IMG/VR virus record: IMGVR_UViG_3300030372_001589
Span: 6,524-70,523 of that record
Reading direction: 5' to 3' (one strand)
Length of the DNA: 64,000 nucleotides
Source: a virus
Taxonomy: Duplodnaviria > Caudoviricetes
The notes below the pieces were generated by a model. It saw nothing but the letters and a program-made list of their open reading frames with translations, made no database searches and was not told the origin of the DNA. The position numbers were made by a program, and so were the translations under genes. This document shows positions 46,307 through 64,000 of this stretch, in pieces (positions within the stretch are counted from its first letter, which is position 1; every line of letters starts with the position of its first letter).

Positions 46307-46497
46307 TCTAATTCCCTCTTTAATATATTTAATAATGTCTTTGCTTCGTCTATATTTAGACGAATGCCTTTTGTTGGCTTGTTGTTTTTATGCCATCTAA
46401 TATCCATGACTTCTATATTCCAATAGATGCCTCTTTTAACAAGGACTTCATCGTTAGCATTTCTAACGATTCTTCCTTTTATTTCCATTTCACTCAC
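46303..46497 (-). CDS. PC4/p15-like ssDNA-binding protein
   Basis: VMDIRW...PTKGIRL..DEAKTL matches PC4 DIR...KGIsL. Confidence 0.75.
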   Translation of the reverse strand: MSEMEIKGRIVRNANDEVLVKRGIYWNIEVMDIRWHKNNKPTKGIRLNIDEAKTLLNILKRELE

Positions 46498-46894
46498 TAA
46501 ACCACCCCTGTTTGAATTTATCTAATTCCTTTCTAGAAGTATAATACTTAGGTGTATCTAATTCATCTAAACGATTCACTACCCAGCAAGCCCCACCTAA
46601 AGATGAAACTTGAACAATCTCATACTGCCCTTCATTTACATTAATGACCTCAACAGTATTAATTTCTGGAACTAAACCGTAAGTCTTAGTTATCTCATTA
46701 GCAACATCATGTATATTTTCAACAACATACTTGATGATATGCGCTCTTTGTATTGGTATTTTAGGTGCTACTTGAATAGATAATTTACCTGTCATTTTAC
46801 AAACAATACATTTGTTTCCTTCACAAATAGGGCATTTAACTTCTGCCGCATGAGGGGCAGGTAAAGTTACAGTTACGGCTCTTTTCTTAGACAT
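46490..46894 (-). CDS. Zn-finger protein (CxxCxG..CxxC..G)
   Basis: CPICEGNKCIVCKMTG. Confidence 0.6.
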   Translation of the reverse strand: MSKKRAVTVTLPAPHAAEVKCPICEGNKCIVCKMTGKLSIQVAPKIPIQRAHIIKYVVENIHDVANEITKTYGLVPEINTVEVINVNEGQYEIVQVSSLGGACWVVNRLDELDTPKYYTSRKELDKFKQGWFSE

Positions 46895-46895
46895 A

Positions 46896-48416: not shown

Positions 48417-48586
48417 TCTATCATCTCCACATCATTAATATTGTATTTATTCAAGCCGTAATATCCTTCACCATGATAAGGAATACCAACATATAGAGTA
48501 TAGCATTCTTCACTACAAAAGGCTCTTTGCCCTATTGGTGTCATAACTAGATACTCCATCGTTTCTTCACCGCAATTAGCACACAA
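48413..48586 (-). CDS. 57-aa TRASH/YHS-like Zn finger between groES and groEL (not in ORF track)
   Basis: TTG start right after the groES stop; CANC-x18-FCSEEC; ATGA overlap with groEL. Confidence 0.65.
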   Translation of the reverse strand: MCANCGEETMEYLVMTPIGQRAFCSEECYTLYVGIPYHGEGYYGLNKYNINDVEMIE

Positions 48587-48802
48587 TCATACCACCGCCA
48601 AAATGAACTCATAAGGAATAAAAAGAAGGTCATTTTGCTTTGTATATTCTCTCTTATCATTAAAGAGAACAGTCTTATCTCTAAGACTTGTATCGACCTT
48701 ACAATCTATTACCTTTCCTTCATTAGCGGCTTTGGTTAATATACCGCTTTCGCTCTTTTTTTCTTCTATTTTTACAATAACATATTCGCCTACTGCTCTC
48801 AT
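48587..48802 (-). CDS. groES: GroES-like co-chaperonin (short)
   Basis: AVGEYVIVK..KSESGIL...GKVI...VLF...ILAVV. Confidence 0.8.
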   Translation of the reverse strand: MRAVGEYVIVKIEEKKSESGILTKAANEGKVIDCKVDTSLRDKTVLFNDKREYTKQNDLLFIPYEFILAVV

Positions 48803-48981
48803 TCTGCATCACCTAATGGCGTTATTTCAAATGGCAATTGCCAAATTGTTTCCGTTCTGTTATTTAGCAAAAATTGAATAGCATCATATTCATCTTGATG
48901 ATGCTGACTATTTTCTCTCATAATATCTAAATAACTTATTATTTCATCTAACACTTCTGCTTTTAATTTTACTTCATTCAT
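48799..48981 (-). CDS. Hypothetical protein
   Basis: 60 aa, overlaps at both ends. Confidence 0.5.
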   Translation of the reverse strand: MNEVKLKAEVLDEIISYLDIMRENSQHHQDEYDAIQFLLNNRTETIWQLPFEITPLGDAE

Positions 48982-49246
48982 TTTTTTTCACCTTAAATTT
49001 ATTTTCTCTTGCTATTTGGCAACACACTCTAATTTTTTGGGTGGAGTGTAAATTCCAAAATTCATCATTTTCCCAACCAAACTTTACTTCAACATATCTG
49101 CAAAGTTCTCTTCTCGACATTTTTTCAAAATCATCGTCAATCTCTATTCCAAGAATAGGGCCACCTTCGTTCTTTAGAAAAGAATCTAAAATAACATAGA
49201 CCCTTCCCATTAAACCAATTGTTTTTCTAAGCATCCATTGTATCAT
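48974..49246 (-). CDS. Hypothetical protein
   Basis: 90 aa, GAGGTG SD. Confidence 0.55.
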   Translation of the reverse strand: MIQWMLRKTIGLMGRVYVILDSFLKNEGGPILGIEIDDDFEKMSRRELCRYVEVKFGWENDEFWNLHSTQKIRVCCQIARENKFKVKKNE

Positions 49247-49333
49247 CTATATACACCTCTTCAACATAGTCCATAAAATGTCCCTTGTATTTTACTAATC
49301 CTAATCTGTATAGAATTGCTCTAATAAACTTCC

Positions 49334-49675
49334 TCATTCTTCTTCACCACCAATGCAAACCCAACCTTTATTCATATCAGCATCAATATAAGTATAAACA
49401 TGAGTTTCAAAGAACTCTTTTAGTTTCTTATCCTTATGGCCTTTCTTTCCCCAAAAGACACCTTTAGTTTTCTTTTGGTTCTTATCATTAGGATGCCTTA
49501 ACTGATGGTTAGCCTGTCTTTCTCTAAGAGTCATAGGTTTAACATAACCCGAAGACATAACCATTACAGTTTCACCATTCCTTCTTACCTTTGTATAAAC
49601 TGTTTGAGTATTCGCTGGCCTACCCTTATATTGTCTAACTGCATTATTTCCGCTTTTTAGTTTTGAAAATCTCAT
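49334..49675 (-). CDS. Basic hypothetical protein
   Basis: 113 aa, ATGA overlap with the JAB gene. Confidence 0.55.
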   Translation of the reverse strand: MRFSKLKSGNNAVRQYKGRPANTQTVYTKVRRNGETVMVMSSGYVKPMTLRERQANHQLRHPNDKNQKKTKGVFWGKKGHKDKKLKEFFETHVYTYIDADMNKGWVCIGGEEE

Positions 49676-50145
49676 TCTTCTTCATCTCCTTTTTTAGTCC
49701 AAGTTTGTGTTCTTTCGTATTCATGGTTACGGTATATATCCAATAGATAAGGTAATTCTTGATTCCAAGAACCATAATGCCCATCTCCACCTAACACATA
49801 AGCCGTTTTCATTAATGGTTGCCAAATACTAACTGTTCTAATATCAGTTCCACTGAAATAAGCACTACCAAATGGGTGTGTATGAATCCAACATTTAATC
49901 GGTAACTTCATTCCAACAGGGTCAATTTGAAAATCAACATAACCTGCTGAACCCGATGAAATGTGAATAGCATCATTAGAGTCAATAACAACTTGAACCT
50001 CTAAACCATTCAGTATTTTAGTTGAAGCATACCATATATGCTCAAATAATTCATCTATTTTCATTCCTTGTTCATAATAAGCATCAATATGTTGTTCTGC
50101 TTCTATTCTGGCTATATTTAATTCAGTTTCAAAATCTTCATTCAT
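49672..50145 (-). CDS. JAB/MPN+ (JAMM) metalloprotease
   Basis: Upstream EVQ Glu plus WIHTHP...FSGTD (HxH-x7-SxxD). Confidence 0.9.
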   Translation of the reverse strand: MNEDFETELNIARIEAEQHIDAYYEQGMKIDELFEHIWYASTKILNGLEVQVVIDSNDAIHISSGSAGYVDFQIDPVGMKLPIKCWIHTHPFGSAYFSGTDIRTVSIWQPLMKTAYVLGGDGHYGSWNQELPYLLDIYRNHEYERTQTWTKKGDEEE

Positions 50146-51205
50146 TTATTTCAACTCCCATTTTCTTCAATTTTCTTTGGGCCTTTGCTAGTTTCTTCTC
50201 TAGCCGCCCTTGCTTTTTAGCGTTTCTCTTAGCCTTCCAACGCTTGAGTAGCGAAGGTTTCTTCTCCGGCTTCATATTATCCTCTAACTGATTCTTAATC
50301 TCGGTGGCCTTCATAAGCAACGATTTACTTTCAGCATATGTAAAATCAAAGTGCTTTTCGACATGCTTTGCAATCACCCAATACGGGCGACCAAACATAT
50401 TCCTTGCATCATCAATTGTCAAAGAATGCCACATTACCAAAGCATTTAATGATTCATCATAAGTCCACGCTTTATGTGTATTAGGATAATCAGTGCTTTC
50501 GTTGTTTAGGCGATTTAATGGTGTTCGCTTATCAATCACTTTTTCCACAACAGGGCTTTTGTCTTCTTTAAGAGTATATGTACCATCCTTTCTAACTGTC
50601 TTAATAGACGGTGTTAGTTCTTTTAAGTTTCTTATCCATCTTTCACGACACGCTCTAGGAGTTCTATTCAGATTAGGAGGAAAACCTTGTTCTCCGTCTT
50701 TATGCTCATTCATCCATTCAACCAAAATATAATCCTCTTTACTCGACCAACGGATTGAATTACCTTGATATAGCAAATTATTTTGTTTGTCTGGCTTTTT
50801 AATTTCTGCAAGGGATTGTTTTTCTAACAAATTAATCTGTTCCGCCGCAGTTTGTTTATTAAACTCTCCACGCTTAGAAGAATCAACTAATTCTTGAGTT
50901 AACTTTCTAATTCCTTCAACAGTACCATTAGGTAAAGTCATAGCGGCAATATATCTGCATTGTTTTCTTGTAGCAGGGTCAGACCTCCAATCAGTTTTCT
51001 TTGTTTCTTTGACATCTTCTGAATCACCAAACGATAATTCATATTCTTTAATGTACTTTCTAATCGTTTGTCCGTAATTATCAGCACTTCTAACAGGATG
51101 CCCTTCTTTCTCCATTTGTTTCTTAATACTAGGCCACGACATTTTTTCCTGTAATCGCAAATATGCGGCTCTCATTATTTGTTCTGTTGTCCATTTCATT
51201 TTCAT
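50138..51205 (-). CDS. Multi-domain protein with Myb/SANT-like repeats
   Basis: WTTEQ, WSSKEDYIL...RTPRACRERW, WTYDE; PAT-x-KQ helical module. Confidence 0.65.
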   Translation of the reverse strand: MKMKWTTEQIMRAAYLRLQEKMSWPSIKKQMEKEGHPVRSADNYGQTIRKYIKEYELSFGDSEDVKETKKTDWRSDPATRKQCRYIAAMTLPNGTVEGIRKLTQELVDSSKRGEFNKQTAAEQINLLEKQSLAEIKKPDKQNNLLYQGNSIRWSSKEDYILVEWMNEHKDGEQGFPPNLNRTPRACRERWIRNLKELTPSIKTVRKDGTYTLKEDKSPVVEKVIDKRTPLNRLNNESTDYPNTHKAWTYDESLNALVMWHSLTIDDARNMFGRPYWVIAKHVEKHFDFTYAESKSLLMKATEIKNQLEDNMKPEKKPSLLKRWKAKRNAKKQGRLEKKLAKAQRKLKKMGVEINE

Positions 51206-51771
51206 ACATTCACCACCATAAAGGATTTTACTTCTTCTTCATTAAACCATCTTTGAATCCATTGTGCGCCAATACCTGCAATAACAACTTGCATGAAATG
51301 AACGCCACTATTGCTACCATCCCAAGAATCGCCTTGGCAACTGAATGAGCCTTCCGGCCCTGCTAACAATGTATCATACATTTTAGGGTCAGCGTCATAA
51401 GTCACAAAAGCACCATTACGGCCTTGCGCTCTTAAATCCAACCACTTAACATTTGAATTGTATAATGTTCTTCTAACTGATAAGTTATCAACACAACATA
51501 CAACTAAATCATATCCTTGCATCTGTTTAGCAGTTAGGATAGGATATTGGGAACCGCCTTTAATACTGCGATACCTATTTCCCATAACCGATGCTTTGTT
51601 TTCTCCTACATCTTCTTTAGTAAAATTCTGATATGTTAGATTCTTAGTTTCGACCTTATCGGGGTCTGCCACTGAAATATCATACATCTTCACTTTATCT
51701 AATAGGGGTACTAGGAAACTCCCAATACCACCTACGCCTATAATCAATACTTTTCTCTTCATTTTATTCAC
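51202..51771 (-). CDS. ThiF/MoeB/E1-like adenylating enzyme
   Basis: IIGVGGIG, DPDKVETKNL, DVGENKA, CCVDN..VR, LDLR; SCQ in the crossover loop. Confidence 0.9.
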   Translation of the reverse strand: MNKMKRKVLIIGVGGIGSFLVPLLDKVKMYDISVADPDKVETKNLTYQNFTKEDVGENKASVMGNRYRSIKGGSQYPILTAKQMQGYDLVVCCVDNLSVRRTLYNSNVKWLDLRAQGRNGAFVTYDADPKMYDTLLAGPEGSFSCQGDSWDGSNSGVHFMQVVIAGIGAQWIQRWFNEEEVKSFMVVNV

Positions 51772-51991
51772 CTCTATTAATAATTTTTTTATCTAACAGT
51801 TCATCGTAATTTTCCATCCAATTACTCAAAACCTTAATTGCTTTTCTTCGGCCTAAACCAAATACTGATTCTAAATATGGAGAAGCACCAAACATATTGG
51901 TTTCTCCACTTTGTCGTAATTCTTCTAAATACACATAGTATTCAATCCATTCTTCATTTATCATTCTAATCTCTCCAAATTTGCATTCCAT
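51764..51991 (-). CDS. Conserved viral hypothetical protein (SGxTNMF motif)
   Basis: LEELRQSGETNMFGASPYL; family identity (DUF5049-like) is tentative. Confidence 0.6.
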   Translation of the reverse strand: MECKFGEIRMINEEWIEYYVYLEELRQSGETNMFGASPYLESVFGLGRRKAIKVLSNWMENYDELLDKKIINRGE

Positions 51992-52602
51992 TTCTTATTG
52001 TACGAATCTATTTCTTCGTTGTATTTTATCTTGTAATGGTCTTTAGGCCACCATTCGGGCATTCTGTTTTTTCTCCATTCAGCAAACTTCCATTTGCCTT
52101 CAAGATAATAATGTCTGTAAGATTTGATTACAAAGTCCCAAGCATTGTCGTGCATAACTTTTCCTCTATCTAATCTATACTTATCATCCATAGCGATAGT
52201 TACCGGCGTAGCCTTTTTCCAATTAGTGCTGGTTGTTATCTTATGTGCTACATCTAATATCCTCTCTCTTGAGCCATGCGTCTTTTCGTAGCGATGTGTA
52301 TATTCATCACAAAGAGCGATTCCATGCCTGTATAACCATTGAGAATTATGAGGGGTTTGTCTAGCCCATATTGTCGAAGGATGATTTAACATAGCAGGTT
52401 TCATTAGGTTTGAACCAATATCTCGATGAAATTCTTTTAATTGAGCAAGAGTCGGTTCTTCGCCGTAATGCTCAATATAATCAAAAAATAAAGCATTTGT
52501 ATGTAACATCTGACAAGTTTCTGTTGGCATTTTAACTACATGTTTATCTAACATTTGTTGTGCCGCTTCTCTTGGGCATTCTGATAATGCAAATATATTC
52601 AT
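51961..52602 (-). CDS. Pyrimidine-dimer DNA glycosylase (T4 endonuclease V)-related protein
   Basis: MNIF.L...AA...DKHVVKM..E..QML; NHPSTIWARQ. Confidence 0.75.
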   Translation of the reverse strand: MNIFALSECPREAAQQMLDKHVVKMPTETCQMLHTNALFFDYIEHYGEEPTLAQLKEFHRDIGSNLMKPAMLNHPSTIWARQTPHNSQWLYRHGIALCDEYTHRYEKTHGSRERILDVAHKITTSTNWKKATPVTIAMDDKYRLDRGKVMHDNAWDFVIKSYRHYYLEGKWKFAEWRKNRMPEWWPKDHYKIKYNEEIDSYNKKWNANLERLE

Positions 52603-52721
52603 TTTTCTGCCTCCGTTAAACCTAATCCTAGTTGTTTATACAACCAATCAATGAAATTTTCATCATTCATGTTTTGCTGTACGCATTCTATACATTCTAT
52701 TGCTTTGTTATAATGATTCAT
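52599..52721 (-). CDS. 40-aa hypothetical protein (not in ORF track)
   Basis: GGAGGA SD; MNHYNKAIECIEC...; ATGA overlap. Confidence 0.5.
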   Translation of the reverse strand: MNHYNKAIECIECVQQNMNDENFIDWLYKQLGLGLTEAEK

Positions 52722-52859
52722 TGAAATTTCCTCCTTGCTTCTTCATATATCTTGTATGTGTCTTTACGACCCAAAAGAGTCTGCTGTTTACAATACTCCT
52801 TTCTTTTGTTATTTGTACTAACATAGGTATTCAGAAAATCCTTTTTCCAATATCTATGT

Positions 52860-53753
52860 TCACTCGTTGGTATTACTTCTCTCATTCTTACTGTCATTTA
52901 TATCACCATATTCTATTACATCTCGGCCTTTAATTTCGGACATTTTATTATATCCTAACATTTGAATTAATTTTTTACTTGTCTTTCCTATTGCTGATAA
53001 GGAAATACCTGTGCTTTCAGAAATATCATTTCTTGTTACACCATAATATCTAAACATATTTGTTGCTACCCAGCATACACTTGCGTAATATGCCTTTGAT
53101 TTATGATAACAATTATGTTCTATAATAGGTTCTAATTTCAACAGCAAATCCATAGCATTAGAATAGAACATTACCTCATCAGTAATCTTAGAGCAAGTTT
53201 GCTTGAGCATAAATGAAGGGTCTGCACCATAAAGAATATTTTTATTCTTAAAATGATGAATCATTTTTTGCACTAATCTATTTACTATCCTTGTTGAACA
53301 AGAGTATTGCGAACACAATTTCTTCATAGGAATAGGGGTTCTATTCTCTTTAAGTACATAAAAGACAGTAGCAGTACATCTAGCCTCTAACTTTATTTTA
53401 CCAAAAAGACCTTTCTTCTGTGCTTCTAAATAGCATTCCTTAACTCTATCTTTAAGAGGGTGGTCTATTTGAATAGAGGATAAAATCATATTACAGGTAC
53501 GGAGTCCTGCTGAAATATGTTTAGGGATAGTGTTATTCATCCCTCTTTTATTAAACTTGTAAGAACCCTTTCCTGTTATAATGGAACCTAATTCTCCCCT
53601 TTCGGCAGAATGAACAATGTTTCCATCATTTACCATTCTAACAGTTTCTTCAAACAATTCAGTAACGACTACTAAGCCACAATCGCTACATTCTGTTTCT
53701 CCTAATCTTTCATTATAGTTAAATACTAAACAACCACATTCACTGCATTTCAT
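52860..53753 (-). CDS. tfb: Transcription initiation factor B (TFB/TFIIB) homolog
   Basis: CxxC-x15-CxxC ribbon, two cyclin-fold repeats, C-terminal HTH TRNDISESTGIS. Confidence 0.85.
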   Translation of the reverse strand: MKCSECGCLVFNYNERLGETECSDCGLVVVTELFEETVRMVNDGNIVHSAERGELGSIITGKGSYKFNKRGMNNTIPKHISAGLRTCNMILSSIQIDHPLKDRVKECYLEAQKKGLFGKIKLEARCTATVFYVLKENRTPIPMKKLCSQYSCSTRIVNRLVQKMIHHFKNKNILYGADPSFMLKQTCSKITDEVMFYSNAMDLLLKLEPIIEHNCYHKSKAYYASVCWVATNMFRYYGVTRNDISESTGISLSAIGKTSKKLIQMLGYNKMSEIKGRDVIEYGDINDSKNERSNTNE

Positions 53754-55005
53754 TAAAATCAACTCTTATCGTATTTTTATCATTACAAATATATCTATTA
53801 ATCGTGCTAACTATCTGCACGGTCATTACATCATTAAAAAGTGCTAACGCCCTTGCTACAAATTGGTCGCCTAAAGAAGAACCGCTTGACATATTATCAA
53901 TACATATTGGGCCTTTCCATTTAGGTTCATTAGTTGGTTTTGGTGGCATTTTGATTTCATCTTCATTACTATTGTCAATAGCCCCTACATCGGGAGGAAG
54001 ACTTCTTAATATTTCTTCACATTCTTCATGCCACTTTTGCATTCGTGCGGCGAAGTGTATTTCATTATCGGGTGTTGAATAAACAAATGTTGAAACCATC
54101 TGAATATCTGATTTATATTTGTTATTCGTAAGTTTCCAATCCCAACCTTTACCACGAACATACATAGTAACAGGTTCATCCTCTTCATAGATTACTTTTA
54201 GCCTATCAGGATATTTTGCCGCCATTTCTCTAACTAATTGTTTAGCCCTATCTTCGACAATATCCTGTTGCCTGTTTTGTTTCAGAAATTCAATCATTAA
54301 TTTACTATCTGAAACCTTTGGTTTAACTCCCACTGTTCTTTCATAAAGAGTTTCGGGAGGGCAAAACATCCATTTTTTACTTCGCTTTTTACCATGAAGA
54401 TAATAAGCACAAAACGATTCTAACTCTTTATTAGTCATAGTACCCCAAATACCATCACTAACTTCAATTGCTATTTCATTATTGCTAATCTGTTGACAAT
54501 TCAGCCTAACATTAGTTCGTTTGAAATCATCAAAGAAATGAAATGGTACTCTATTTTCTAGACAATACTTTACATCTTCGGGAATACTTAGAGAGGCATA
54601 CAATCCTTTCATAAGTTTATTCACATCTTTTTCAAAACAAGATTTGAAAGTAACTCTAGCCAAAGCAGAGGAAATAGTATGCAAAGTTTCGGTTTTACCA
54701 TTTAGTGTATATCTATTTCCTTTTTTTCCTAGTGCTATTAAACAACCGCCAATATCAATCACTTCATTAAAATCTATCGAGGGTATATCTAAATACAAAC
54801 CATACCTACGATAATGACCTCTTCTTTGGCTTCTAAGATTAGAAGCGAAGAAGGAAGTTATTGCCGAATGTATAGGGTCTTTCGCATTTCTATCGGATTG
54901 TATCGGTACTTCTCTAGTTGACATAACTAGATTGCTTCTAATTTCCGTAGTCCAATAGTTTCTTGAATCGTCTGGCCTCTTTATTCTTATTGTTAATTTA
55001 TTCAT
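53740..55005 (-). CDS. Hypothetical protein with candidate E2-like C-terminal domain
   Basis: VSTFVY...KGPICIDNM...ALALFND resembles the E2 GxICLD active-site region. Confidence 0.5.
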   Translation of the reverse strand: MNKLTIRIKRPDDSRNYWTTEIRSNLVMSTREVPIQSDRNAKDPIHSAITSFFASNLRSQRRGHYRRYGLYLDIPSIDFNEVIDIGGCLIALGKKGNRYTLNGKTETLHTISSALARVTFKSCFEKDVNKLMKGLYASLSIPEDVKYCLENRVPFHFFDDFKRTNVRLNCQQISNNEIAIEVSDGIWGTMTNKELESFCAYYLHGKKRSKKWMFCPPETLYERTVGVKPKVSDSKLMIEFLKQNRQQDIVEDRAKQLVREMAAKYPDRLKVIYEEDEPVTMYVRGKGWDWKLTNNKYKSDIQMVSTFVYSTPDNEIHFAARMQKWHEECEEILRSLPPDVGAIDNSNEDEIKMPPKPTNEPKWKGPICIDNMSSGSSLGDQFVARALALFNDVMTVQIVSTINRYICNDKNTIRVDFNEMQ

Positions 55006-55009
55006 TGTA

Positions 55010-55177
55010 TCACATCATGTAACTATTATCATTTATATTATTAGCACATTCTTTATGTATTTCTTTTTTCATGTCTTCCGGTAAAAGTAATTGCCCTCCA
55101 CAAACCCTACATTTTGTGGCTACTCGCTTTTTATACGACCAAGGGCTTTTTGTGTATTCGGGATTTTTTTCTTTCAT
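55010..55177 (-). CDS. 55-aa Zn-finger protein (not in ORF track)
   Basis: CRVCGG...HKEC; ATGA overlap upstream. Confidence 0.6.
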   Translation of the reverse strand: MKEKNPEYTKSPWSYKKRVATKCRVCGGQLLLPEDMKKEIHKECANNINDNSYMM

Positions 55178-55518
55178 TCAAACCACCTTTTCATTATATC
55201 ACAAATATTACAGTTATAGAAATCAGTACAGTTTTTATCATGGTATTGTAGGGCTTCGTGTCTTTCTGTAAAGGCTTTTCTCGCATAATCAGTAAAGCCT
55301 ATTTCCACCGCTTCGGGTATTTCCCATAATACTATTTTAACTGTCTGCCACAGCCTGTATTTTTTTTCTATTTCAGTTTCTAAACCGGCACAAGCGTCAA
55401 GTGCTAATTTAATTTTCTTTTTAGCAGAATCAGACCACGCATTATCATAAGAGATTATGACTCTTGAAAAGTCAATAAAACTCATATGGCGAATGGGCCT
55501 AATTCTGCGTGATTTCAT
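55174..55518 (-). CDS. Hypothetical protein
   Basis: 114 aa, AGGTGA SD; C-terminal H..C..C..C. Confidence 0.55.
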   Translation of the reverse strand: MKSRRIRPIRHMSFIDFSRVIISYDNAWSDSAKKKIKLALDACAGLETEIEKKYRLWQTVKIVLWEIPEAVEIGFTDYARKAFTERHEALQYHDKNCTDFYNCNICDIMKRWFE

Positions 55519-55526
55519 TTAATCAC

Positions 55527-57389
55527 CTAAATTTCACAAGCACCACCGGCACAGGCTAATTCACCTGTTAGGTTAGTATCATCTTGTTCTTCTTTGATTT
55601 TTGTTAAATCAATTTTTGTTAGAGTTAACATCATTTCATTATATGTTTCCTCATCAATCGTTTCAAACGGTGCTTGTTTGTAAGTGCCACCATCATAAGG
55701 CAATACAGATAGACCGTTGTAATAATGCCTATTCATCCAAAGCCAATCTCCTACATCATCCCATTCATCTTCTTTTACAGAAATGGTTGCAGAAACATTA
55801 TGGCTATTTAGTCCATCAATATGTCCTGTTCTAACCCAACGAATACTAAAGTTTTTCACTCTTTCTAATAAATCAAATACTGATTCATGTCGAGTTATTG
55901 CATCTTCGGGTGATTTTTGAGGAATAGAAATAACAGCCTGTTCTTCGGGATTGAAATATTCATCCTCAACTAATTCGGGATGATTATTCAATAGATAAGA
56001 ATAGATTGCTTCATTCTTGCCTACTCTAATTCTTCTCATGTAGTAGTTATCGTGCCAAGCATGAATACCACTACTTGTACCTAATACAAGAGAAGTGGTT
56101 CCGGCGGGTTTTACACAAGTAATTCTAGCCGCAGGTTTTACTCCAATGATTTTAGCAATACGCTTGTTTTCCTGTTTAGCGGCAAATGAAGCCATTTCTA
56201 AATCTAAACCTTCAACAACATTAGAAGCAATACCTGTCATAGATACACCAAGCAAAGAATCCTTTTCGGTATTCTTTCTCCATATCTCTCTTAGATAATG
56301 AAAATCAGTATATCCGGCTTGAAGCGTTCCTAAGAATGCCGCCGCTTTTACTCTTGATTCTAAATCTGCTTGGTCTTCAACATCAGAAGCATTTACTTCT
56401 GTTAAATTACAAAACTGATATGGTCGCAAAGCGATTTCACAACAAGGATTAGTTCCCCAATCTTTATCATTACTGAAATAAACTGCTGGTTCACCACTAC
56501 CACTATGTTGTATTCTTTCCCATAGACCCATGAAAAACTCTCTAGTTACTCTATGTCTAAGAATAACTGCTGAATTGTTAGCACGGCCTCTTTGTGGGTT
56601 ATTCTCCCACCAATTACCGGACTTACAACTAATCATCTTTGAATCATCAGCACTGAATAAACTAATCATAGCGGCCCTACGAATACCACCGGCTAACACT
56701 GCATCTGCTAAATAACACATAATATCATGTGCTTCAATAGATTCTAATTTAGAACCATTAGTTTTATTTTGAAGTATTCCTTCTATTTTAACTAAACATT
56801 CCCTTAATGGCTGAAAACCGGGTGCTTTTCCGCCACTAGTCTTTAATAAAGTTCCTTTTGGTCTAATATCAGAATAATCAAAAATAGGGCTACTACTCCT
56901 AGTTCCGGTATAACATTCCAAAAGGATTCTAATTGAATCAGCCCATCCCTCAATAGAATCGCTAATAAGATACCTGCGTTTTCTTTCGGGATTAGGTTGC
57001 TGAATCTCCGGTAATTGCTCAATATGGTGTCGTTGGACTGAATATCCAACCCCCGTTCCACCGAGAAGCAAGAACATAGCCTCGCTAAAAGATAAAAGGG
57101 AATCAATAGGCATATAAGCACAATTATAAACCCTATTTGGACTAATCTCAATAGGCTTACCCCCAAATTGCATAGACCGCATAGAAGGGAGGACTTTTTT
57201 TGTTTTAACGAATTTTTCATATATTTCACCTATTTCTTTTGTTAATTCTGGATATTTCTTAATGTGCATGTTACGGTTTCTTTCAACTATTTCGTTCCAT
57301 GTTTCTCTTCTTTTCTTTGCTGGTAAATACCTTGCATATTTCATATGCACTGTAATATCAGACAATGTTTCAATTGCTGTATTTGTCAT
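55527..57389 (-). CDS. nrdJ: Class II (B12-dependent, monomeric-type) ribonucleotide reductase
   Basis: YNCAY, TNPCCEI, TCVKPAGT, C-terminal CAGGAC; no nrdB in the window. Confidence 0.85.
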   Translation of the reverse strand: MTNTAIETLSDITVHMKYARYLPAKKRRETWNEIVERNRNMHIKKYPELTKEIGEIYEKFVKTKKVLPSMRSMQFGGKPIEISPNRVYNCAYMPIDSLLSFSEAMFLLLGGTGVGYSVQRHHIEQLPEIQQPNPERKRRYLISDSIEGWADSIRILLECYTGTRSSSPIFDYSDIRPKGTLLKTSGGKAPGFQPLRECLVKIEGILQNKTNGSKLESIEAHDIMCYLADAVLAGGIRRAAMISLFSADDSKMISCKSGNWWENNPQRGRANNSAVILRHRVTREFFMGLWERIQHSGSGEPAVYFSNDKDWGTNPCCEIALRPYQFCNLTEVNASDVEDQADLESRVKAAAFLGTLQAGYTDFHYLREIWRKNTEKDSLLGVSMTGIASNVVEGLDLEMASFAAKQENKRIAKIIGVKPAARITCVKPAGTTSLVLGTSSGIHAWHDNYYMRRIRVGKNEAIYSYLLNNHPELVEDEYFNPEEQAVISIPQKSPEDAITRHESVFDLLERVKNFSIRWVRTGHIDGLNSHNVSATISVKEDEWDDVGDWLWMNRHYYNGLSVLPYDGGTYKQAPFETIDEETYNEMMLTLTKIDLTKIKEEQDDTNLTGELACAGGACEI

Positions 57390-57391
57390 GT

Positions 57392-57763
57392 TTAACACCT
57401 ATATTTGCTGGCTTTAGGTAATTGGAATAGAGTTGAAAAGGAAGAGAGCCACTCTCCTTTTTTGCTAATTACCCACTCTTTCTCTATGACGAACTCCCAT
57501 TCGTCAAAACTATTAATTGCAAAAGGGCATTCTTCTAGTAAAACACTAACAGAAGAATACTCCTTTTTATTGAATAAGATTTTTGTTTCACCGGAGGCAT
57601 ATATTACACCGTATTTTCCACGACCTATAATATATCCTTCGGGATAGAAGTCTGGCGTAAAAACCGCCACTTCATTTTGAATTATCGGCTCTGTTAGATT
57701 CCAACCGTTTAACTCAAATAATATTTTTAATGCTTCGGGTGACATAAAATGTTTAAGATTCAT
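57392..57763 (-). CDS. Hypothetical protein
   Basis: ORF in operon context upstream of RNR. Confidence 0.55.
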   Translation of the reverse strand: MNLKHFMSPEALKILFELNGWNLTEPIIQNEVAVFTPDFYPEGYIIGRGKYGVIYASGETKILFNKKEYSSVSVLLEECPFAINSFDEWEFVIEKEWVISKKGEWLSSFSTLFQLPKASKYRC

Positions 57764-57777
57764 ACTTACCACACTAC

Positions 57778-57820
57778 AAAAAGGGGAAGGAACAAGGCCG
57801 ATAAGACCTCATTCCTCCCC
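57778..57820 (-). terminator. Hairpin + T5 terminator downstream of the Ubl gene
   Basis: Minus strand GGGGAGGAA...TTCCTTCCCC followed by TTTTT. Confidence 0.6.
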
Positions 57821-57852
57821 CAATGTAGCAAAGTATAGTTTGGTTTATGAAT

Positions 57853-58053
57853 CTAACCGCCAACTATTGCTGGCGTTAAATCGACTGATTCAACAGTGTC
57901 CCAATTAATCTCTCCAATAGTTTCTCTAGACATCATTTCGCCATTGATAAACACCCAATGTGTCGGGTGCGTATCAATCTGCTCAATTACTTCATCAGAA
58001 GCCATTATCAATTCGGTGTGTCCTGTTTCATTCAAAATTGTCAACTTAATCAT
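57853..58053 (-). CDS. Ubiquitin-like (ThiS/SAMP-type beta-grasp) protein ending in GG
   Basis: 66 aa; VFINGEMMSRE...VDLTPAIVGG-stop; GGAG SD. Confidence 0.85.
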   Translation of the reverse strand: MIKLTILNETGHTELIMASDEVIEQIDTHPTHWVFINGEMMSRETIGEINWDTVESVDLTPAIVGG

Positions 58054-58217
58054 TCTATCATCTCCGTTCTATTCTTTCCATGTTCTGTCTGCCTATAAAG
58101 GGAGTCATTTGTCATCCTCATTTCCCCCGATGGCTAAAGCGGCCAAAGGCCAAATCATTGTTGAAGCCGCTACTACGGCTACTGTTCCTACTATTAATTC
58201 CTTCATTATTCCCATAT

Positions 58218-59495
58218 TTATTCCTCTTTCATTCTTTCTATTTCATTACTTGCCTGTTTTCGGGTTAAACCCTCTCTCCATTCCGAATTTTCTTCGGGGC
58301 AATAGCCCAAATCTTCTAAATATTTAATTTGGGCTGGAGTAATCATTTTACTACAAATGTCTTTTAGTTTACTTAATTGACTACTCGTCAATTCTCTCTT
58401 CTCAGACAATTGATTTTTAATACCGGATAGGAATTTATATTCCCAATCACTCGTTGCTAAAGATATATCAAAGGGTCTTAAACCATAATACATACACATT
58501 TGTATAAACAAATTATTACTTGGCCGTGCTAAGTTTATTTTAGCAGAATCAACCTTTTGCTTGTCAAATTCACGCTGTCGCCTTTCTCTTTCTTCTCTAG
58601 CAATTCTGGCTTTACGCTCTCTTTCGGGCCTACCTGCTTCCCAAGCGGCTTGTCTTTCTAAAGCGGCGATACGGTTTCTTTCTTGTCTTTCTATCCTTAA
58701 TTGCATTTGTTTAAGATAATGTTCAGTTCTATCTTCGGCACTTTTCATTAGAGAATCACACCTTTCTTTGTGTTTAATATCAAAGAAGGCATCAAAAATA
58801 ATCATATCTTGCCATAACTTATCTGTTGGATAACCTCTTGTTCTCGATTGCGCCCTTGAATTACTTGGGTGTTCCCATCTCCAAACAATAGAAGCCATTC
58901 GATACCAAGTATCTGTGGGTGAACCATCACCCTTTTTTCTAAGGCGAGAATGATATTTATATCGGTTTTCTCCACTATTCCAAACTAATTGAGGCTGTCC
59001 TTTTACATTAATTAAAACATCAGCATCCTTAATTTTTTCATATATTCTATTGAATTGTTCACCGTTTTGGTGCATCCATGCTTTAGCCATCATAGTCTTA
59101 GTCCTTTCTTGAATCCATGAATCAATTTCACCTTCTGTAATATCAGAAACATCTCTCCCTGTTCTATTAGAGATTTCTTTCATAATTAGATAGGTATTGA
59201 TGTGGTCTGAACCAACACATTCGACTACTCCATTTTCAGTATTAACTATTTCAAAATGATATACAACCGAATGACCGCAAAGACATTTACCACGACCCAT
59301 TTGTGAATTAGCCACCCAATCGGGAGGTGTATTAGTGGTATAATTACCCCACCAAACCCTACCTGTGGCTATCCATTCTTCTTTCGCTTCTTCGTAATTA
59401 TCAGCATTAGATAGTTCAACCATCCTCTCCATCAGTTTTCTATCCCAACGACCATTACCTAAACTTCTTTTTGCTACAATAGTTTCAACCATCAT
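58218..59495 (-). CDS. Hypothetical protein: CxC..H Zn site, coiled coil, C-terminal helical module
   Basis: CLCGH..VGSDH; ERERRQRE stretch; TPAQIKYL...LTRKQAS. Confidence 0.7.
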   Translation of the reverse strand: MMVETIVAKRSLGNGRWDRKLMERMVELSNADNYEEAKEEWIATGRVWWGNYTTNTPPDWVANSQMGRGKCLCGHSVVYHFEIVNTENGVVECVGSDHINTYLIMKEISNRTGRDVSDITEGEIDSWIQERTKTMMAKAWMHQNGEQFNRIYEKIKDADVLINVKGQPQLVWNSGENRYKYHSRLRKKGDGSPTDTWYRMASIVWRWEHPSNSRAQSRTRGYPTDKLWQDMIIFDAFFDIKHKERCDSLMKSAEDRTEHYLKQMQLRIERQERNRIAALERQAAWEAGRPERERKARIAREERERRQREFDKQKVDSAKINLARPSNNLFIQMCMYYGLRPFDISLATSDWEYKFLSGIKNQLSEKRELTSSQLSKLKDICSKMITPAQIKYLEDLGYCPEENSEWREGLTRKQASNEIERMKEE

Positions 59496-59748
59496 TCATC
59501 ATCTCCAAATCATCTATCTCAAACCTTCGCTGTTCTTGCAGATAACCCGTCAAAATCATATCAATCTTTTCCGGCAAATTATCCACTATTCCAGCAATTA
59601 GTTTTCTATTCAGACTTATCCATATACGGTGATAAGTATTTAGCACCACTTTAGGTTCGTCATTTTCATTCTGCGATATTACAATTGGCGGTAAATCCGC
59701 CGTATTTACTACTCTAAATTCCACATTCGTTTTTGGTTCTCTAGTCAT
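59485..59748 (-). CDS. Hypothetical protein
   Basis: 87 aa, operon context. Confidence 0.55.
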   Translation of the reverse strand: MTREPKTNVEFRVVNTADLPPIVISQNENDEPKVVLNTYHRIWISLNRKLIAGIVDNLPEKIDMILTGYLQEQRRFEIDDLEMMNDG

Positions 59749-60054
59749 TCAAATTCCCCCTGCTAAAGCAAACAAGTTTCTTACATTCTTATGAGCAATA
59801 TAATTCTCAATATCATGTAGGAAATCTTGTGGGTTACTAATATATTTGCTGTGATTAACCAATAGACTAGCAACTGTCTGTGCTAGTTTCTGATTGCTTA
59901 AACCACTAATTAACTTTGCCATTTCAAAGGCCAAGTGTTCTCTATAATTATCATCCAACATACAAGTTATGCACTCTCGCTTAATCATACAATCATGTTG
60001 GTGGTCGGGTTCAATAACATACCCTTTACCTTTACATTCTAAACATTCACTCAT
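59749..60054 (-). CDS. Zn-finger protein
   Basis: CLECKGKG...CITC. Confidence 0.6.
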   Translation of the reverse strand: MSECLECKGKGYVIEPDHQHDCMIKRECITCMLDDNYREHLAFEMAKLISGLSNQKLAQTVASLLVNHSKYISNPQDFLHDIENYIAHKNVRNLFALAGGI

Positions 60055-60269
60055 TCTTCTTCACTCTCCGCAAAAAATTCATCTGAATGAATCCATGTTT
60101 GATGAGTAATGTGTAGGTTATCTAAATTTGCTTTCCAATCACCATCTTCTTCGGTTCTTGCTTCCCAAAACTCTTTCAAAAGTCCCAATGTAACAAAAGT
60201 ATATTTTACATATTTCGCCATTTTATTATTATTGTATATCGTACTGCCATATTTTATTTCTATATTCAT
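60051..60269 (-). CDS. Hypothetical protein
   Basis: ATG 60269 after GGAGG SD. Confidence 0.5.
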   Translation of the reverse strand: MNIEIKYGSTIYNNNKMAKYVKYTFVTLGLLKEFWEARTEEDGDWKANLDNLHITHQTWIHSDEFFAESEEE

Positions 60270-60271
60270 AT

Positions 60272-60493
60272 TTATTCCTCCTTTTTTACGGGTGGTGGAA
60301 TCCACCGTGAATTATACATGGCATTATATTCTGCCATACAATCCTCGCATAGTCTAAATTCAATAACTTCAATCCTATGCTTGAAAGAAGTTACCATTTC
60401 ACAAGATGCTTTTAATCCACATCTAGTACATTTAGGAACAGGTATTACCGGCTCCTTTTTCCATCTATTTCTAAAAAATTCTATTATCTTCAT
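60272..60493 (-). CDS. Zn-finger protein
   Basis: CTRC..C..LCEDC; AGGTGA SD before ATG 60493. Confidence 0.55.
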   Translation of the reverse strand: MKIIEFFRNRWKKEPVIPVPKCTRCGLKASCEMVTSFKHRIEVIEFRLCEDCMAEYNAMYNSRWIPPPVKKEE

Positions 60494-60774
60494 ATTATCA
60501 CCTAAAGGCGCAGGAAAATAACTCATAGGAAGTACGCCTATTATCTATACTAAGAGTAAAATTGTTATTTTTAACTAGAAAACCTGCTTTAATGGGAAAA
60601 GAGAATTATGTCATATTTACGGGCTAGAAGCACCTACTCAGTAAGTAGTATTCACATGAAATGTGCTTAAACTCCCCTCAACGACCTATCAATGAAATCG
60701 CTATAATATTGTTCTCTTTTTATTAGCAAACCCTTTTTCCACATTAGGTCGATGCCGACCAGAGCATTATCTCC

Positions 60775-60930
60775 CTAATTGTGTGGAATCAATTTCTGAT
60801 AGGCAATAATACCTACCTTTCTATTATTTACTGTCAAATACAGTATATCTCCTTCTTCGACTAACAAAGTAACATCATCAAGATATTTACTCGCCCATCT
60901 TTCAAGATTAATTTTTTGAATTGCATTCAT
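60775..60930 (-). CDS. 51-aa hypothetical protein (not in ORF track)
   Basis: MNAIQKINLERWASKYLDD...IPHN*, GAGGCG SD. Confidence 0.55.
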   Translation of the reverse strand: MNAIQKINLERWASKYLDDVTLLVEEGDILYLTVNNRKVGIIAYQKLIPHN

Positions 60931-60939
60931 ATTTTCGCC

Positions 60940-61266
60940 TCAAAAGGTTTTACCGTGCATAAACTCACGGCTTTCGTTATATTCCATCTTAGCCACAACA
61001 GCACCGGCAACATCTAAATCTTTACCAAAGGCATAATCCATAATACGGATTACTGCATCTGCTAATTCCTCTTCAAGATTACTAAACTCCATAATCTTAT
61101 TAGAAGTAGGATTGCCTTCTCTAAGTGCTTCTAGTGCTTCGGAAATCTCCGCATGAATTAGAGCCATACGCTCACCATCATTAACTTCTCCTTTCCAAAA
61201 ACCGTGATTAACTGCATTCTTGTAAATCTTTTTCGCCTTCTTATTCCATTCTTTTTCAAAACTCAT
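60940..61266 (-). CDS. MazG-like nucleotide pyrophosphohydrolase
   Basis: IHAEISEALE...EEELAD..IR..D...KMEYNESR. Confidence 0.85.
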   Translation of the reverse strand: MSFEKEWNKKAKKIYKNAVNHGFWKGEVNDGERMALIHAEISEALEALREGNPTSNKIMEFSNLEEELADAVIRIMDYAFGKDLDVAGAVVAKMEYNESREFMHGKTF

Positions 61267-61480
61267 AATTTTCACCTCTGCTTAATGATGCTTCAATGCA
61301 CTTACCTATATGTTTCTTTGGTGCATGTTTCTTCGCTATTATTTGAATAAGCGAATCGCTTACACTTGGGGAAACAGGCACTACCGTTGAACACTTAGAA
61401 CAAACAGGTTTACCTGTTTTGTCGCAATAAGTATCTGCTTGTATATTACAAAAAGCACAATCTGGCTTTTTACTTTCCAT
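61256..61480 (-). CDS. Small Zn-finger protein
   Basis: CAFC...YC...VCSKC. Confidence 0.55.
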   Translation of the reverse strand: MESKKPDCAFCNIQADTYCDKTGKPVCSKCSTVVPVSPSVSDSLIQIIAKKHAPKKHIGKCIEASLSRGENYEF

Positions 61481-61500
61481 TTTCCATAATCCTACCATAT

Positions 61501-61944
61501 TTATTCCTCCTTATTATTTACAGGACAATCAACATTTAGTGTCTGATGGTCTAAGTTATTACATTCACAAATTTCTTCATCTGTTAGAAATCTTGCAGTA
61601 GTTGTAACATATCTTTCTAAACTCAAACCATAATCATAAGGATAACCAAATGATTCTATATCATTCCATTCCTCGCCTATTCTGATAAATCCATAAGATT
61701 CATTATCTTCAATGCGGTGCATGGCATCCATGATTTGTCTAACACTAGGATAACTTTCATACCATTTAACATCACTGACTTTAGCAAGTAGTATTTTCAC
61801 CTTATTACCGTTATACATCTTAATAGTGCCTAGTTCAAATTCATCCCATAATTCATCTTTCGCATCATCTTTCAGAATATTAACTAATTCTGTGTTTTCT
61901 ATTCTTGTTATTATCCAAACATCACTTCTATATCCCATATTCAT
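61501..61944 (-). CDS. Conserved viral hypothetical protein (MGYRSxV)
   Basis: MGYRSDV...KWYESY...FIRIGEE..D motif. Confidence 0.6.
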   Translation of the reverse strand: MNMGYRSDVWIITRIENTELVNILKDDAKDELWDEFELGTIKMYNGNKVKILLAKVSDVKWYESYPSVRQIMDAMHRIEDNESYGFIRIGEEWNDIESFGYPYDYGLSLERYVTTTARFLTDEEICECNNLDHQTLNVDCPVNNKEE

Positions 61945-62057
61945 TCCTCCACACAAGTACATCTTGCATTCAAAGCACGACTAGCATCAACAAAAGATAC
62001 ACTACTATGTATGTTGTATTCTGCCGTTGCTTCGCATCCTTTACAAGTCATAAGCAT
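61941..62057 (-). CDS. 38-aa Cys-rich peptide (not in ORF track)
   Basis: MLMTCKGC...RCTCVEE*; ATGA overlap. Confidence 0.45.
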   Translation of the reverse strand: MLMTCKGCEATAEYNIHSSVSFVDASRALNARCTCVEE

Positions 62058-62081
62058 TATTCTTACTTCCTTTCCATTCAT

Positions 62082-62303
62082 TCAAATGCACCCCATAAAC
62101 ATTCTAGCCCATTCGCTATACCTGCTGTAATAAATTACATTATCTGCATTTATCTTAGATAAGTCCAAAGAATCATCTGTTAGGAACACTACTCTTTTAG
62201 TGCCTTTATCCCACGCTACTTCTTTAGTTATCTCCCATTCATTTAGTGCTTTTATCATTATATTATATTTATTCATATTTTCAACTCCTTGGTTTTGGCC
62301 CAC
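62082..62303 (-). CDS. Hypothetical protein
   Basis: Operon context after UvrD. Confidence 0.45.
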   Translation of the reverse strand: MGQNQGVENMNKYNIMIKALNEWEITKEVAWDKGTKRVVFLTDDSLDLSKINADNVIYYSRYSEWARMFMGCI

Positions 62304-63714
62304 AGTAAAATAGATTTCTCTTTGCTCTTGTAATTGCTACATAGCAAATGTTTCTCTCTTCTCTAGGATTTGTTGCTTTTGGATGAGGCATCCTCTCGGT
62401 TGCCAAGATATATACATTATCCGCTTCAAGACCCTTAGCCTTGTGAACAGTGGATAGCATAATCTCTCCTTCATCGTTATTATCGAATACTCTCTTGATT
62501 TCATTTACAATTCCACCAACAGTAGTAGCCATACTAGCAAAAATCTTCAAGCATTCATACTTGTCTTCAAGGTTGTTTGCTTGATTAACCTTATCAGCCG
62601 CAATCAACTTATCATAAGTAAACTTGAAGTCCTGTGCTAGCAATTCAGAAAACTCTTCTGAACCCATATTATCATTCTTAGTGATTTTTCTAACTGAATT
62701 AATCAGCCCTTTTGTCATATCTCGACCTAGAACATATGCAGATTTACCTTGTAAAATCAAATCGTAAAACGCTGAAACCAAAGGTGCGTTATATCTACAT
62801 AGAACCATATCACCTGCTTGTGGATTAAACGGTGCATTCTCAACAACCATTCCATCTGCCGCATCAGAACGGCAAGAAAAGTTCTTGACATATCTATTTG
62901 CTTCTGAAACAACAGTCTTAGGACATCTCCAAGTTAAACTCAAGGAAAAACGCTTGATTTCTCTATCACCCTTTTCCAATCTCTTAACAAACATATCCAT
63001 TGAATTTGAGTCTGCGCCTCTGAATCCATAAATTGCTTGATTTGGGTCGCCCACAATAATACATCTGCCATTTGCAACACATCTAGAAATCAACTCTCTT
63101 TGCATTTCATTGAAGTCTTGTGCTTCATCAACATATAGTGTATCAAAGGTTGGTAATGGCATGTTTAATACCAAAGGTAGCCAAATCATATCATCAAAAT
63201 CAATCATAGCAGTATTCTGCTTGCATTGGGTAAGAATGGCTGGAATAGCATCAATAGCGATTAACTCTTCACGGTCTGACTTAAATTCAATGTTGTATTC
63301 ATCAATTAAACTGTAAATACCTGCATTGTCATTTTCTTTAAGCATTGAACCTTTAATCAAACTAATTAGTTTAATCAATGGTTGAGCATAGAAATCACGA
63401 CCTAACATATCATCAATAATATTCTTTACTTTGAAGTTATTTACTTTAGTTCTAATTCCAGCACTTCTTAATGCAGCAAACCCTAAAGCGTGAAAAGTCT
63501 TTGCTTCAACACCTTCTGGTAATCTATCTGCTAATTCTGTCTGAATAGATTTATTAAAACATAAAAAAGCCTTCTTATGTCCGTCATCTCTATTTGCTCC
63601 TTCAACTATTGTGAATGTTTTACCAACACCTGCACCTGCGTCAACAATAATGTGACTAGTGCCGTTTGCTATTTCATTCCAAATTGCGTCTTGTTCTTGC
63701 GTTCCTGTTATCAT
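62281..63714 (-). CDS. UvrD/Rep-like superfamily 1 helicase
   Basis: AGAGVGKT, FNK, TFHALG, DEAQD, GDPNQAIYGFRGA, STVHKAKGLE, YVAITRAK. Confidence 0.95.
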   Translation of the reverse strand: MITGTQEQDAIWNEIANGTSHIIVDAGAGVGKTFTIVEGANRDDGHKKAFLCFNKSIQTELADRLPEGVEAKTFHALGFAALRSAGIRTKVNNFKVKNIIDDMLGRDFYAQPLIKLISLIKGSMLKENDNAGIYSLIDEYNIEFKSDREELIAIDAIPAILTQCKQNTAMIDFDDMIWLPLVLNMPLPTFDTLYVDEAQDFNEMQRELISRCVANGRCIIVGDPNQAIYGFRGADSNSMDMFVKRLEKGDREIKRFSLSLTWRCPKTVVSEANRYVKNFSCRSDAADGMVVENAPFNPQAGDMVLCRYNAPLVSAFYDLILQGKSAYVLGRDMTKGLINSVRKITKNDNMGSEEFSELLAQDFKFTYDKLIAADKVNQANNLEDKYECLKIFASMATTVGGIVNEIKRVFDNNDEGEIMLSTVHKAKGLEADNVYILATERMPHPKATNPREERNICYVAITRAKRNLFYCGPKPRS

Positions 63715-63753
63715 TTTTATTTCCTCCTATTTTTATTATTAGGGAATGTGAAT

Positions 63754-63770
63754 GTCTGAATAATTCAGAC
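63754..63770. promoter_or_regulatory. Palindrome GTCTGAATAATTCAGAC between tRNA and UvrD
   Basis: 8-bp arms, 1-nt centre; related copy at 63982-63996. Confidence 0.5.
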
Positions 63771-63799
63771 GGTGAAATGTGTATTAACACTTGAATAAG

Positions 63800-63960
63800 C
63801 GGGCTATGTCGGGTTCGAACCGACGACCAACGGGTATCTTTTGAGGAAAACGAGTTATGTAAAGAAGAAACACTTAACCATTGATAAGCAAGTTCTCGTT
63901 TATTACTTTGGTAAAACCTCATTAAAAGCCCGTTGCGCTACCTGACTGCGCCAATAGCCC
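63800..63960 (-). tRNA. trnK: tRNA-Lys(UUU) with an 87-nt intron at 37/38 (exons 63923-63960 and 63800-63835)
   Basis: Acceptor GGGCTAT/ATAGCCC, D arm GCGC/GCGC, anticodon stem ACGGG/CCCGT, T arm GTCGG-TTCGAAC-CCGAC, discriminator G, no CCA; perfect BHB motif. Confidence 0.95.
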
Positions 63961-63981
63961 AAGAGGAAGAAGGAGGGACAA

Positions 63982-63996
63982 TCCGATTAAATCGGA
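63982..63996. promoter_or_regulatory. Palindrome TCCGATTAAATCGGA upstream of the tRNA
   Basis: 7-bp arms, 1-nt centre. Confidence 0.45.
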
Positions 63997-64000
63997 CATA

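Follow-up and report, generated by a model that had tools for sequence, protein, structure and literature searches.

The intron of a viral tRNA-Lys(UUU) gene is a member of a previously undescribed family of structured RNA elements of about 80 nt. The gene was found in a stretch of 64,000 nucleotides of viral DNA (hereafter the window), which makes up the final 64 kb of a linear IMG/VR record of 70.5 kb with a CheckV completeness of 76%. Positions are those of the window, and its features lie on the minus strand unless the plus strand is named. Taking the evidence as a whole, we consider it likely that the virus has a functional tRNA-Lys(UUU), that the tRNA is spliced by the host and that the intron is a conserved element that has probably retained a function.

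The tRNA gene with its intron covers 161 nt (63800-63960). It was recognized by the Rfam tRNA model RF00005 at 52.3 bits (E 2.3e-8), compared with a gathering score of 29, in an alignment that spans model positions 1-71 and leaves out 88 nt after the anticodon loop. The 5' exon (63923-63960; 38 nt, ending in ...ACGGG CUUUUA) holds tRNA positions 1-37 and one extra D-loop base, and the 3' exon (63800-63835; 36 nt, starting with A CCCGU) holds positions 38-73, with CCA not encoded. Between them, at the canonical position 37/38, lies an intron of 87 nt (63836-63922) that reads AUGAGG...CCUCAAAAGAU. When the exons are joined they make a 74-nt tRNA with the anticodon UUU and a restored 7-nt anticodon loop, CUUUUAA. 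In this tRNA, U8, A14, G18G19, U33, the T-loop UUCGAAC, G53:C61 and the discriminator G can all be read as invariant residues. The splice motif is an archaeal hBHBh' structure, in which a helix of 4 bp lies between two 3-nt bulges on opposite strands, with a further helix on either side. Its 5' strand (63917-63933) consists of ACGGG (63933-63929), CUUU (63928-63925), the bulge UAA (63924-63922) and UGAGG (63921-63917), and its 3' strand (63830-63846) of CCUCA (63846-63842), AAAG (63841-63838), the bulge AUA (63837-63835) and CCCGU (63834-63830). The anticodon stem is ACGGG/CCCGU, the central helix CUUU/AAAG and the outer helix UGAGG/CCUCA, with predicted cuts at 63923/63922 in the 5' bulge and at 63836/63835 in the 3' bulge. 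The original prediction had given the limits and position of this intron, its central and outer helices, its bulges and an inner stem AAACGAG/CUCGUUU, and all of these were correct by direct reading.

Some of the usual indicators were silent at this locus. ARAGORN called no tRNA, because long introns exceed the limits of the tool, and this miss does not count against the gene. The minimum-free-energy fold has 2x2 internal loops in place of the BHB register, which is expected because energy models disfavour 3-nt bulges. The folding z-score of the intron alone was -0.95, which is unremarkable, so folding energy by itself does not flag the intron. The tRNA-Trp intron of Haloferax has about 105 nt, and the 87 nt found here are long but inside the known archaeal range. 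An ORF of 82 aa starting from the AUG of the intron (63674-63922) was rejected as spurious, as its frame stops after 6-22 codons in the related loci L009 and L002. Neither a C box (RUGAUGA) nor a D box (CUGA) was found in the intron, which agrees with the earlier reading that it has no C/D boxes and excludes a guide RNA in the C/D sense.

Homologues of the gene were recovered from IMG/VR, Tara Oceans assemblies and other ocean metagenomes by three routes: identity to a 20-mer of the 5' exon, a pattern search for the junctions and a single metagenome scan. Including that of the window, there were 12 distinct intron-bearing tRNA-Lys sequences, with five intron types of 85-108 nt. In these sequences, the 30 pairs of the cloverleaf and the BHB were formed in 99.4% of the cells, compared with 35-50% when the partners were slid by 1-3 columns. 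The acceptor, D, anticodon and T stems were paired throughout (100%), the central helix of the BHB was invariant and the outer helix was 96.6% paired. Six pairs had changed on both sides: two in the acceptor stem, three in the T stem and one in the outer helix, which occurs as AU, GC and GU. This conservation of pairs indicates that the gene is under selection as a tRNA that needs splicing. For most of the junction-pattern matches (67 of 73), identity as tRNA-Lys introns was not established; they do not fit the element model, and the five that were read were chance matches. L004 and L008 were likewise discarded as chance 20-mer matches within coding DNA. The failure of ARAGORN to make a call might suggest that the match is a tRNA gene in decay or resembles a tRNA by chance, but the score stands 23 bits over the gathering score, every universal tRNA residue is present, the four stems are complete in the whole set of 12 homologues, and compensatory changes are seen in the acceptor and T stems. 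We therefore see almost no probability in that explanation, which is already refuted by the pattern of conservation.

The first sign of the element was an intron-like sequence without a surrounding tRNA in L031, where the helicase gene is preceded by two copies in tandem, and a motif search then yielded more copies. A covariance model (R1) was built from 9 copies, with those of the window excluded. It matched the intron at 63842-63921 (38.9 bits, E about 1e-6), where the helices H1, H2 and H3 and a candidate pseudoknot, ACCA/UGGU, are present. A second copy, which stands free at 60510-60587, scored 31.1 bits (E about 1e-4); there are 16 nt between its end and the ATG at 60493. No match at E<0.01 was obtained in 575 kb of unrelated viral loci. 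On the plus strand of the window, opposite to the genes, there was another match at 53193-53272 (19.5 bits, E 0.12), which is probably a false positive. Most of the loci containing the 17-mer GGTTTATCCAGTAATAA were confirmed as true copies of the element.

We aligned 40 distinct copies, and they have one common architecture. A basal helix H1 of 4-5 bp (GAGG/CCUC, GGGG/CCCC, CAGG/CCUG or GUGG/CCAC) is followed by a conserved 5' joiner of 13-15 nt that ends in GUAAUAA, and then by the 5' strand of H2, a helix of 6 bp of which four pairs covary freely. After this strand come a variable A-rich strand, GAUA, the hairpin H3, a conserved GAA and the returning strands of H2 and H1. Pairing was found in 97.6% of the cells of the 40 copies. 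Both sides had changed in 129 cells, compared with 40 in shuffles, and the covariation score was 0.634, compared with 0.217 in shuffles and 0.09-0.15 with slid partners; the alignments had been fitted to the structure of the model, and these values are biased in favour of that structure. Across the copies there were 40 G.U pairs and no A.C pairs, which implies that the fold exists on the sense strand, in RNA and not in duplex DNA. The joiner probably forms a pseudoknot with the strand that directly precedes H3 on its 5' side. The pseudoknot partners differ from copy to copy (UCC/GGA, UUC/GAA, GCCG/CGGU, ACCA/UGGU and AUCGAA/UUCGAU), and in a duplex test that is free of register the mean energy was -3.98 kcal/mol for partners of the same copy and -1.93 for non-self partners, while in fixed alignment columns only 60.7% of the cells were paired.

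Within the tRNA genes the same architecture is held by different sequences. H1 is the outer BHB helix in every intron-bearing gene, and H1, H2, H3 and the pseudoknot partners were retained in every intron type, with H2 formed as ACGAG/CUCGU, AUGAG/CUCAU, AAUAAC/GUUAUU, CAAAC/GUUUG or GAAG/CUUC. The intron type of L066 fits the architecture by eye and gave no R1 match at E<0.005. The original prediction had called for a check of intron covariation in related viruses, and in that check the interior helices, beyond the BHB, proved to be kept by compensatory change. Searches of the copies in the window, L023, L024 and L031 with Rfam 15, covering riboswitches, ribozymes and leaders, returned no family over any copy at E<=5. 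Neither by eye nor in Rfam did the element fit a k-turn, C/D, H/ACA, hammerhead or pistol architecture. In the case of archaeal H/ACA RNAs, the internal loop of the element is one-sided (13-15 nt compared with 1-2 nt) and the only ACA is inside the apex.

Outside the tRNA genes, the element is mostly found in the leaders of early genes that encode proteins. The end of most free copies lies 15-40 nt upstream of an ATG, with a Shine-Dalgarno-like sequence following after a few bases, and all copies are oriented like the downstream gene. At least six gene families follow them, including a zinc-ribbon protein, the helicase, several small ORFs and a protein of 253 aa that weakly matches a sliding clamp. 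The commonest partner is the zinc-ribbon protein of 66-92 aa, which follows 13 of the 40 aligned copies. In the window it is a 73-aa ORF with a CxxC...CxxC pattern (60272-60493), directly downstream of the free element, and this ORF had no family match over the curated cut-off. The free copy of the window is at the same position as those in L002 and L003, and the pair of element and zinc-ribbon gene is kept in many relatives. Five whole related viral records (80-96 kb) have 1-3 copies each, with copies beside the helicase in the three for which the position of the helicase is known, and the 70.5-kb record has two, both beside the helicase gene. No BHB was seen by eye around free copies in the window, L024 and L031. 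Tandem pairs of elements lie upstream of one gene at L031:56-229, L123:2146-2311 and L129:3562-3729. The L024 element upstream of the helicase is absent in the close relative L023 and resembles the second-site copy of L024 itself, suggesting a recent duplication. In more distant relatives, at L006:3010-3170 and L011:8290-8540 (minus strand), an element heads an ORF-free stretch of about 250 nt that leads into a tRNA-Leu, and this stretch may be a further non-coding RNA.

The helicase is of the UvrD-type SF1 class (62281-63714; PF00580, PF13361; phrog_1967, 3e-91) and is the first gene of a leftward early/replication block. It begins 85 nt downstream of the tRNA, and 40 nt lie between the tRNA and the record's end. 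Immediately upstream of the tRNA is a putative early promoter (63961-63996) that consists of the palindrome tccgaTTTAATcgga (63996-63982) with a TATA-like box and the pyrimidine box CTCCTTCT (63975-63968), and the module ends at tRNA +1. The TATA-like palindrome and the CTCCTTCT box are kept upstream of the helicase in the virus group (L020, L021, L024, L031 and L032). In relatives, the box is followed by a bare leader, by a single element or a pair of them, or by a tRNA-Lys gene that has the element as intron. With its place directly downstream of the putative early promoter and ahead of the helicase, the tRNA would probably be made at the start of infection. The idea of a promoter at a constant distance before every copy was abandoned, since some copies are only about 20 nt after an upstream stop codon. 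In the 5' leader of the helicase (63715-63799) there are two hairpins, GUGUUAAUACAC and GUCUGAAUUAUUCAGAC, the stems of which change compensatorily in L002, L009 and L032, with ATTCAC-like repeats nearby.

This arrangement might also be read as a sign that the element acts as DNA, such as an operator, a part of a promoter or a replication-origin hairpin, and that the intron merely contains a copy of it. The copies do cluster near the helicase after TATA-like and pyrimidine-rich boxes, and the helices are by nature inverted repeats. On the other hand, the excess of G.U over A.C pairs makes the fold strand-specific (single-stranded DNA of the same strand remains compatible with it), the free covariation of the helices is ill-suited to a palindrome bound by protein, every copy is oriented like its downstream gene, and the basal helix of one copy completes an RNA splice motif. 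We regard a role as DNA as very improbable, and the element is treated as RNA in the following.

The original prediction took the BHB intron as evidence for an archaeal host, and other genes of the virus point the same way. An S78 prohead protease and an HK97-type capsid gene are encoded, and the nearest GenBank relatives of the major capsid protein are those of the haloarchaeal tailed viruses HVTV-1 and HCTV-1. The replication genes are of archaeal type, with a split PolB, an RFC-like clamp loader and an ATP-dependent ligase, and the record also has a GroEL-type chaperonin (phrog_5725) and an RNR (phrog_367) besides the UvrD-type helicase. The PolB domain PF00136 is divided between two ORFs (profile positions 35-193 and 221-370), and small ORFs lie between the two halves in this region (32803-36653), as described for group B1 magroviruses. 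With group B magroviruses (Philosof et al. 2017, PMC5434244) the virus has in common the HK97-type, halovirus-like capsid module, the split PolB, the RNR and the bacterial-type GroEL, as well as the ATP-dependent ligase, a tRNA-Leu in relatives and an origin in the ocean water column. The genomes of the record and its relatives that were compared with the group are 70-97 kb long. Judged by gene content alone, with no tree, the virus resembles group B magroviruses, for which Marine Group II archaea have been proposed as hosts and which are said to carry tRNA-Leu (PMC5434244). That publication lists tRNA-Leu and tRNA-Arg, with no mention of an intron-bearing tRNA-Lys or of the leader element. 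The matches in the phage collection included no reference magrovirus genome. Because of its gene content, the virus probably has a Marine Group II (Poseidoniales) archaeon as host; on the genes compared, the host appears archaeal and most probably belongs to the Poseidoniales.

The tRNA itself had first led us to suspect an Asgard host. The exact 20-mer of the 5' exon was matched in six Promethearchaeota (Asgard) MAGs with no Poseidoniales genome among the matches, and over positions 8-43 of the spliced tRNA (36 contiguous bases) there is no difference from the tRNA-Lys of four Promethearchaeota MAGs. However, a scan of 400 Promethearchaeota genomes with 44001-64000 of the window gave only 40-nt matches to tRNA halves and one RNR homologue, and no spacer-like matches. 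The contig of this homologue, of 5.3 kb and in an Asgard MAG bin (L149, G061:C239:4230-5261), ends in the RNR gene, with 68% protein identity to the viral RNR, and nothing else on it matches the window. We prefer a host of the magrovirus type because of the gene content and the water-column origin of the homologues. A protein-atlas look-up of the chaperonin returned viral clusters only and gave no clue to the host. The 20-mer search also brought up dense arrays of 15-30 tRNA genes per 2-7 kb (L012:600-2120, L014:6300-7800 and L017:300-6900), on two Promethearchaeota MAG contigs and a Paucibacter soli contig, which were retrieved only because they have the tRNA-Lys 20-mer in common.

Neither EndA nor RtcB was found in the 70.5-kb record. 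Splicing must therefore depend on the enzymes of the host, as had been proposed from the motif. In the established archaeal pathway, the EndA of the host would cut the pre-tRNA at both 3-nt bulges, and its RtcB would join the exons and probably circularise the intron. Archaeal tRNA introns are known to be circularised at the BHB (PMC12558985).

The tRNA is, on comparison with relatives, an accessory and dispensable gene. In L032 and L022, in which the helicases are 89% and 81% identical to that of the window, the tRNA is cleanly missing and the promoter is joined straight to the same downstream leader. Intron-less tRNA-Lys(UUU) genes also exist in related viruses, and the closest one agrees with the spliced product at 70 of 74 bases. 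In some relatives the place of tRNA-Lys is occupied by tRNA-Leu(UAA). We observed such a gene of 84-85 nt upstream of the helicase promoter in L023-L025 and L028-L030 (at about 2200-2380), where the helicase is 68-75% identical. The codon AAA makes up 5.45% of the codons in the ORFs of the window, being the second most frequent codon and accounting for 71% of the Lys codons, and TTA, the codon of the tRNA-Leu(UAA) of the relatives, ranks fifth. From this usage, the tRNA most likely supplements the decoding of AAA in an AT-rich virus.

A different purpose had been suggested earlier, namely that the tRNA replaces host tRNA-Lys(UUU) cut by a PrrC-type anticodon nuclease while the intron shields the precursor. 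Its only attractions are the identity of the UUU anticodon and the interruption of the anticodon loop by the intron, and no other pointer to it was found in the window or in the relatives. The presence of tRNA-Leu(UAA) or of nothing at the same locus in relatives speaks against it, and so do the intron-less tRNA-Lys genes of related viruses. The record has no RNA ligase of the RtcB type, which was the only repair family looked for, and PrrC systems are known from bacteria. Moreover, AAA and UUA are among the most used codons of the virus, so that both tRNAs are more simply explained by an ordinary supply for these codons. We think that defence against such a nuclease is a far-fetched purpose for the gene and keep to codon supply.

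What the intron does is a separate question. Between L009 and L066, the exons are 99% identical, the introns 64% and the flanking DNA about 77%, so the primary sequence of the intron diverges faster than the neighbouring coding DNA. An exchange of introns between the two was considered, and it is not needed to explain the difference because the flanking DNA itself is only about 77% identical. This rapid divergence could mean that the intron is a passenger: a duplicating RNA or DNA module that got into the anticodon loop and has been kept there without benefit since EndA removes it cleanly. A selfish duplicating module is a serious rival to our account. It would fit the presence and absence of the element among close relatives, as upstream of the helicase in L024 but not in L023, the tandem duplications in L031, L123 and L129, the copies before unrelated genes, and the absence of the whole unit of tRNA and intron from close relatives. 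Transposition of tRNA introns is also documented in Thermoproteales (PMC4090602). A mere spacer, however, would require only H1 for the splice motif, and in the intron lineage H2, H3 and the pseudoknot were kept by compensatory changes and the single-stranded motifs were kept as well. Besides, a selfish function of the element would still be a function. We consider a passenger without benefit to be unlikely, and a conserved element that probably retains its function is the explanation that we prefer.

Because the fold is kept by compensatory change within introns, its function is probably independent of the proximity of a ribosome binding site. Selection on the fold away from a start codon disfavours a purely translational role that depends on position and favours an RNA that binds a factor. 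Such an element could act as an RNA of its own, whether free or circular, on the transcript while it is being made, or through a factor bound to the pre-tRNA. Possible modes are an action in cis on the nascent transcript, in trans after excision, or as a gate for splicing. The original prediction suggested that the intron might work as a functional small RNA once excised, and this idea is strengthened by the finding of a conserved, covarying family that also occurs outside tRNA genes. More specifically, the element may represent a new class of regulatory RNA of marine archaeal viruses that binds a ligand or protein, with the folding of the element gating EndA cleavage through its basal helix in response to the same signal as the early replication genes, which is a speculative and rather doubtful model; a related speculation is that the element is active in trans as the excised, circular intron.

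The closest precedent for the intron is the box C/D intron in the tRNA-Trp of Haloferax and its relatives (PMC4090602), which is likewise a long BHB intron at 37/38 housing a discrete structured RNA. Its family members are otherwise free-standing, as they are here, and it is excised by EndA and circularised (PMC12558985). In contrast to it, the viral intron lacks C, D, C' and D' boxes as well as a k-turn signature, the element folds into three helices and probably a pseudoknot and is without a relative in Rfam, the gene is viral and the tRNA is that for Lys. HGTV-1 is also a tailed archaeal virus with an intron-bearing tRNA gene (PMC13532342), and that intron, too, must need the splicing enzymes of the host; nothing is reported there on its content or conservation. 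HGTV-1 encodes RtcB and Rnl2 ligases (PMC8651126), whereas the present record has no RtcB. In Thermoproteales, homologous tRNA introns are found at several places as a result of transposition (Fujishima 2010, as related in PMC4090602), as are the copies in our viruses, which implies that the intron is a movable module bounded by the BHB. The Thermoproteales copies are all in tRNA genes, while most of the viral copies are outside of them, without a BHB, in the leaders of protein genes.

Precedents thus exist singly: a tRNA intron in a virus (HGTV-1), an intron that contains a functional RNA (tRNA-Trp) and homologous introns at multiple loci (Thermoproteales). What is new is their combination, in an undescribed and probably pseudoknotted RNA family of ocean archaeal viruses whose members serve as gene leaders and also as tRNA introns. 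To our knowledge, tRNA genes are known in few archaeal viruses, and an intron in such a gene has been noted for HGTV-1 alone, and there only briefly (PMC13532342). The intron-bearing tRNA is a handy marker by which viruses of this group can be assigned to an archaeal host. The family offers a concrete RNA with strong covariation, common in abundant ocean viruses of uncultured archaea, to be characterised, and the use of one RNA module as both leader and tRNA intron bears on the origin and retention of archaeal tRNA introns. If the basal helix does gate the cleavage by EndA, the maturation of the viral tRNA would be switched by the signal that controls the early replication genes.
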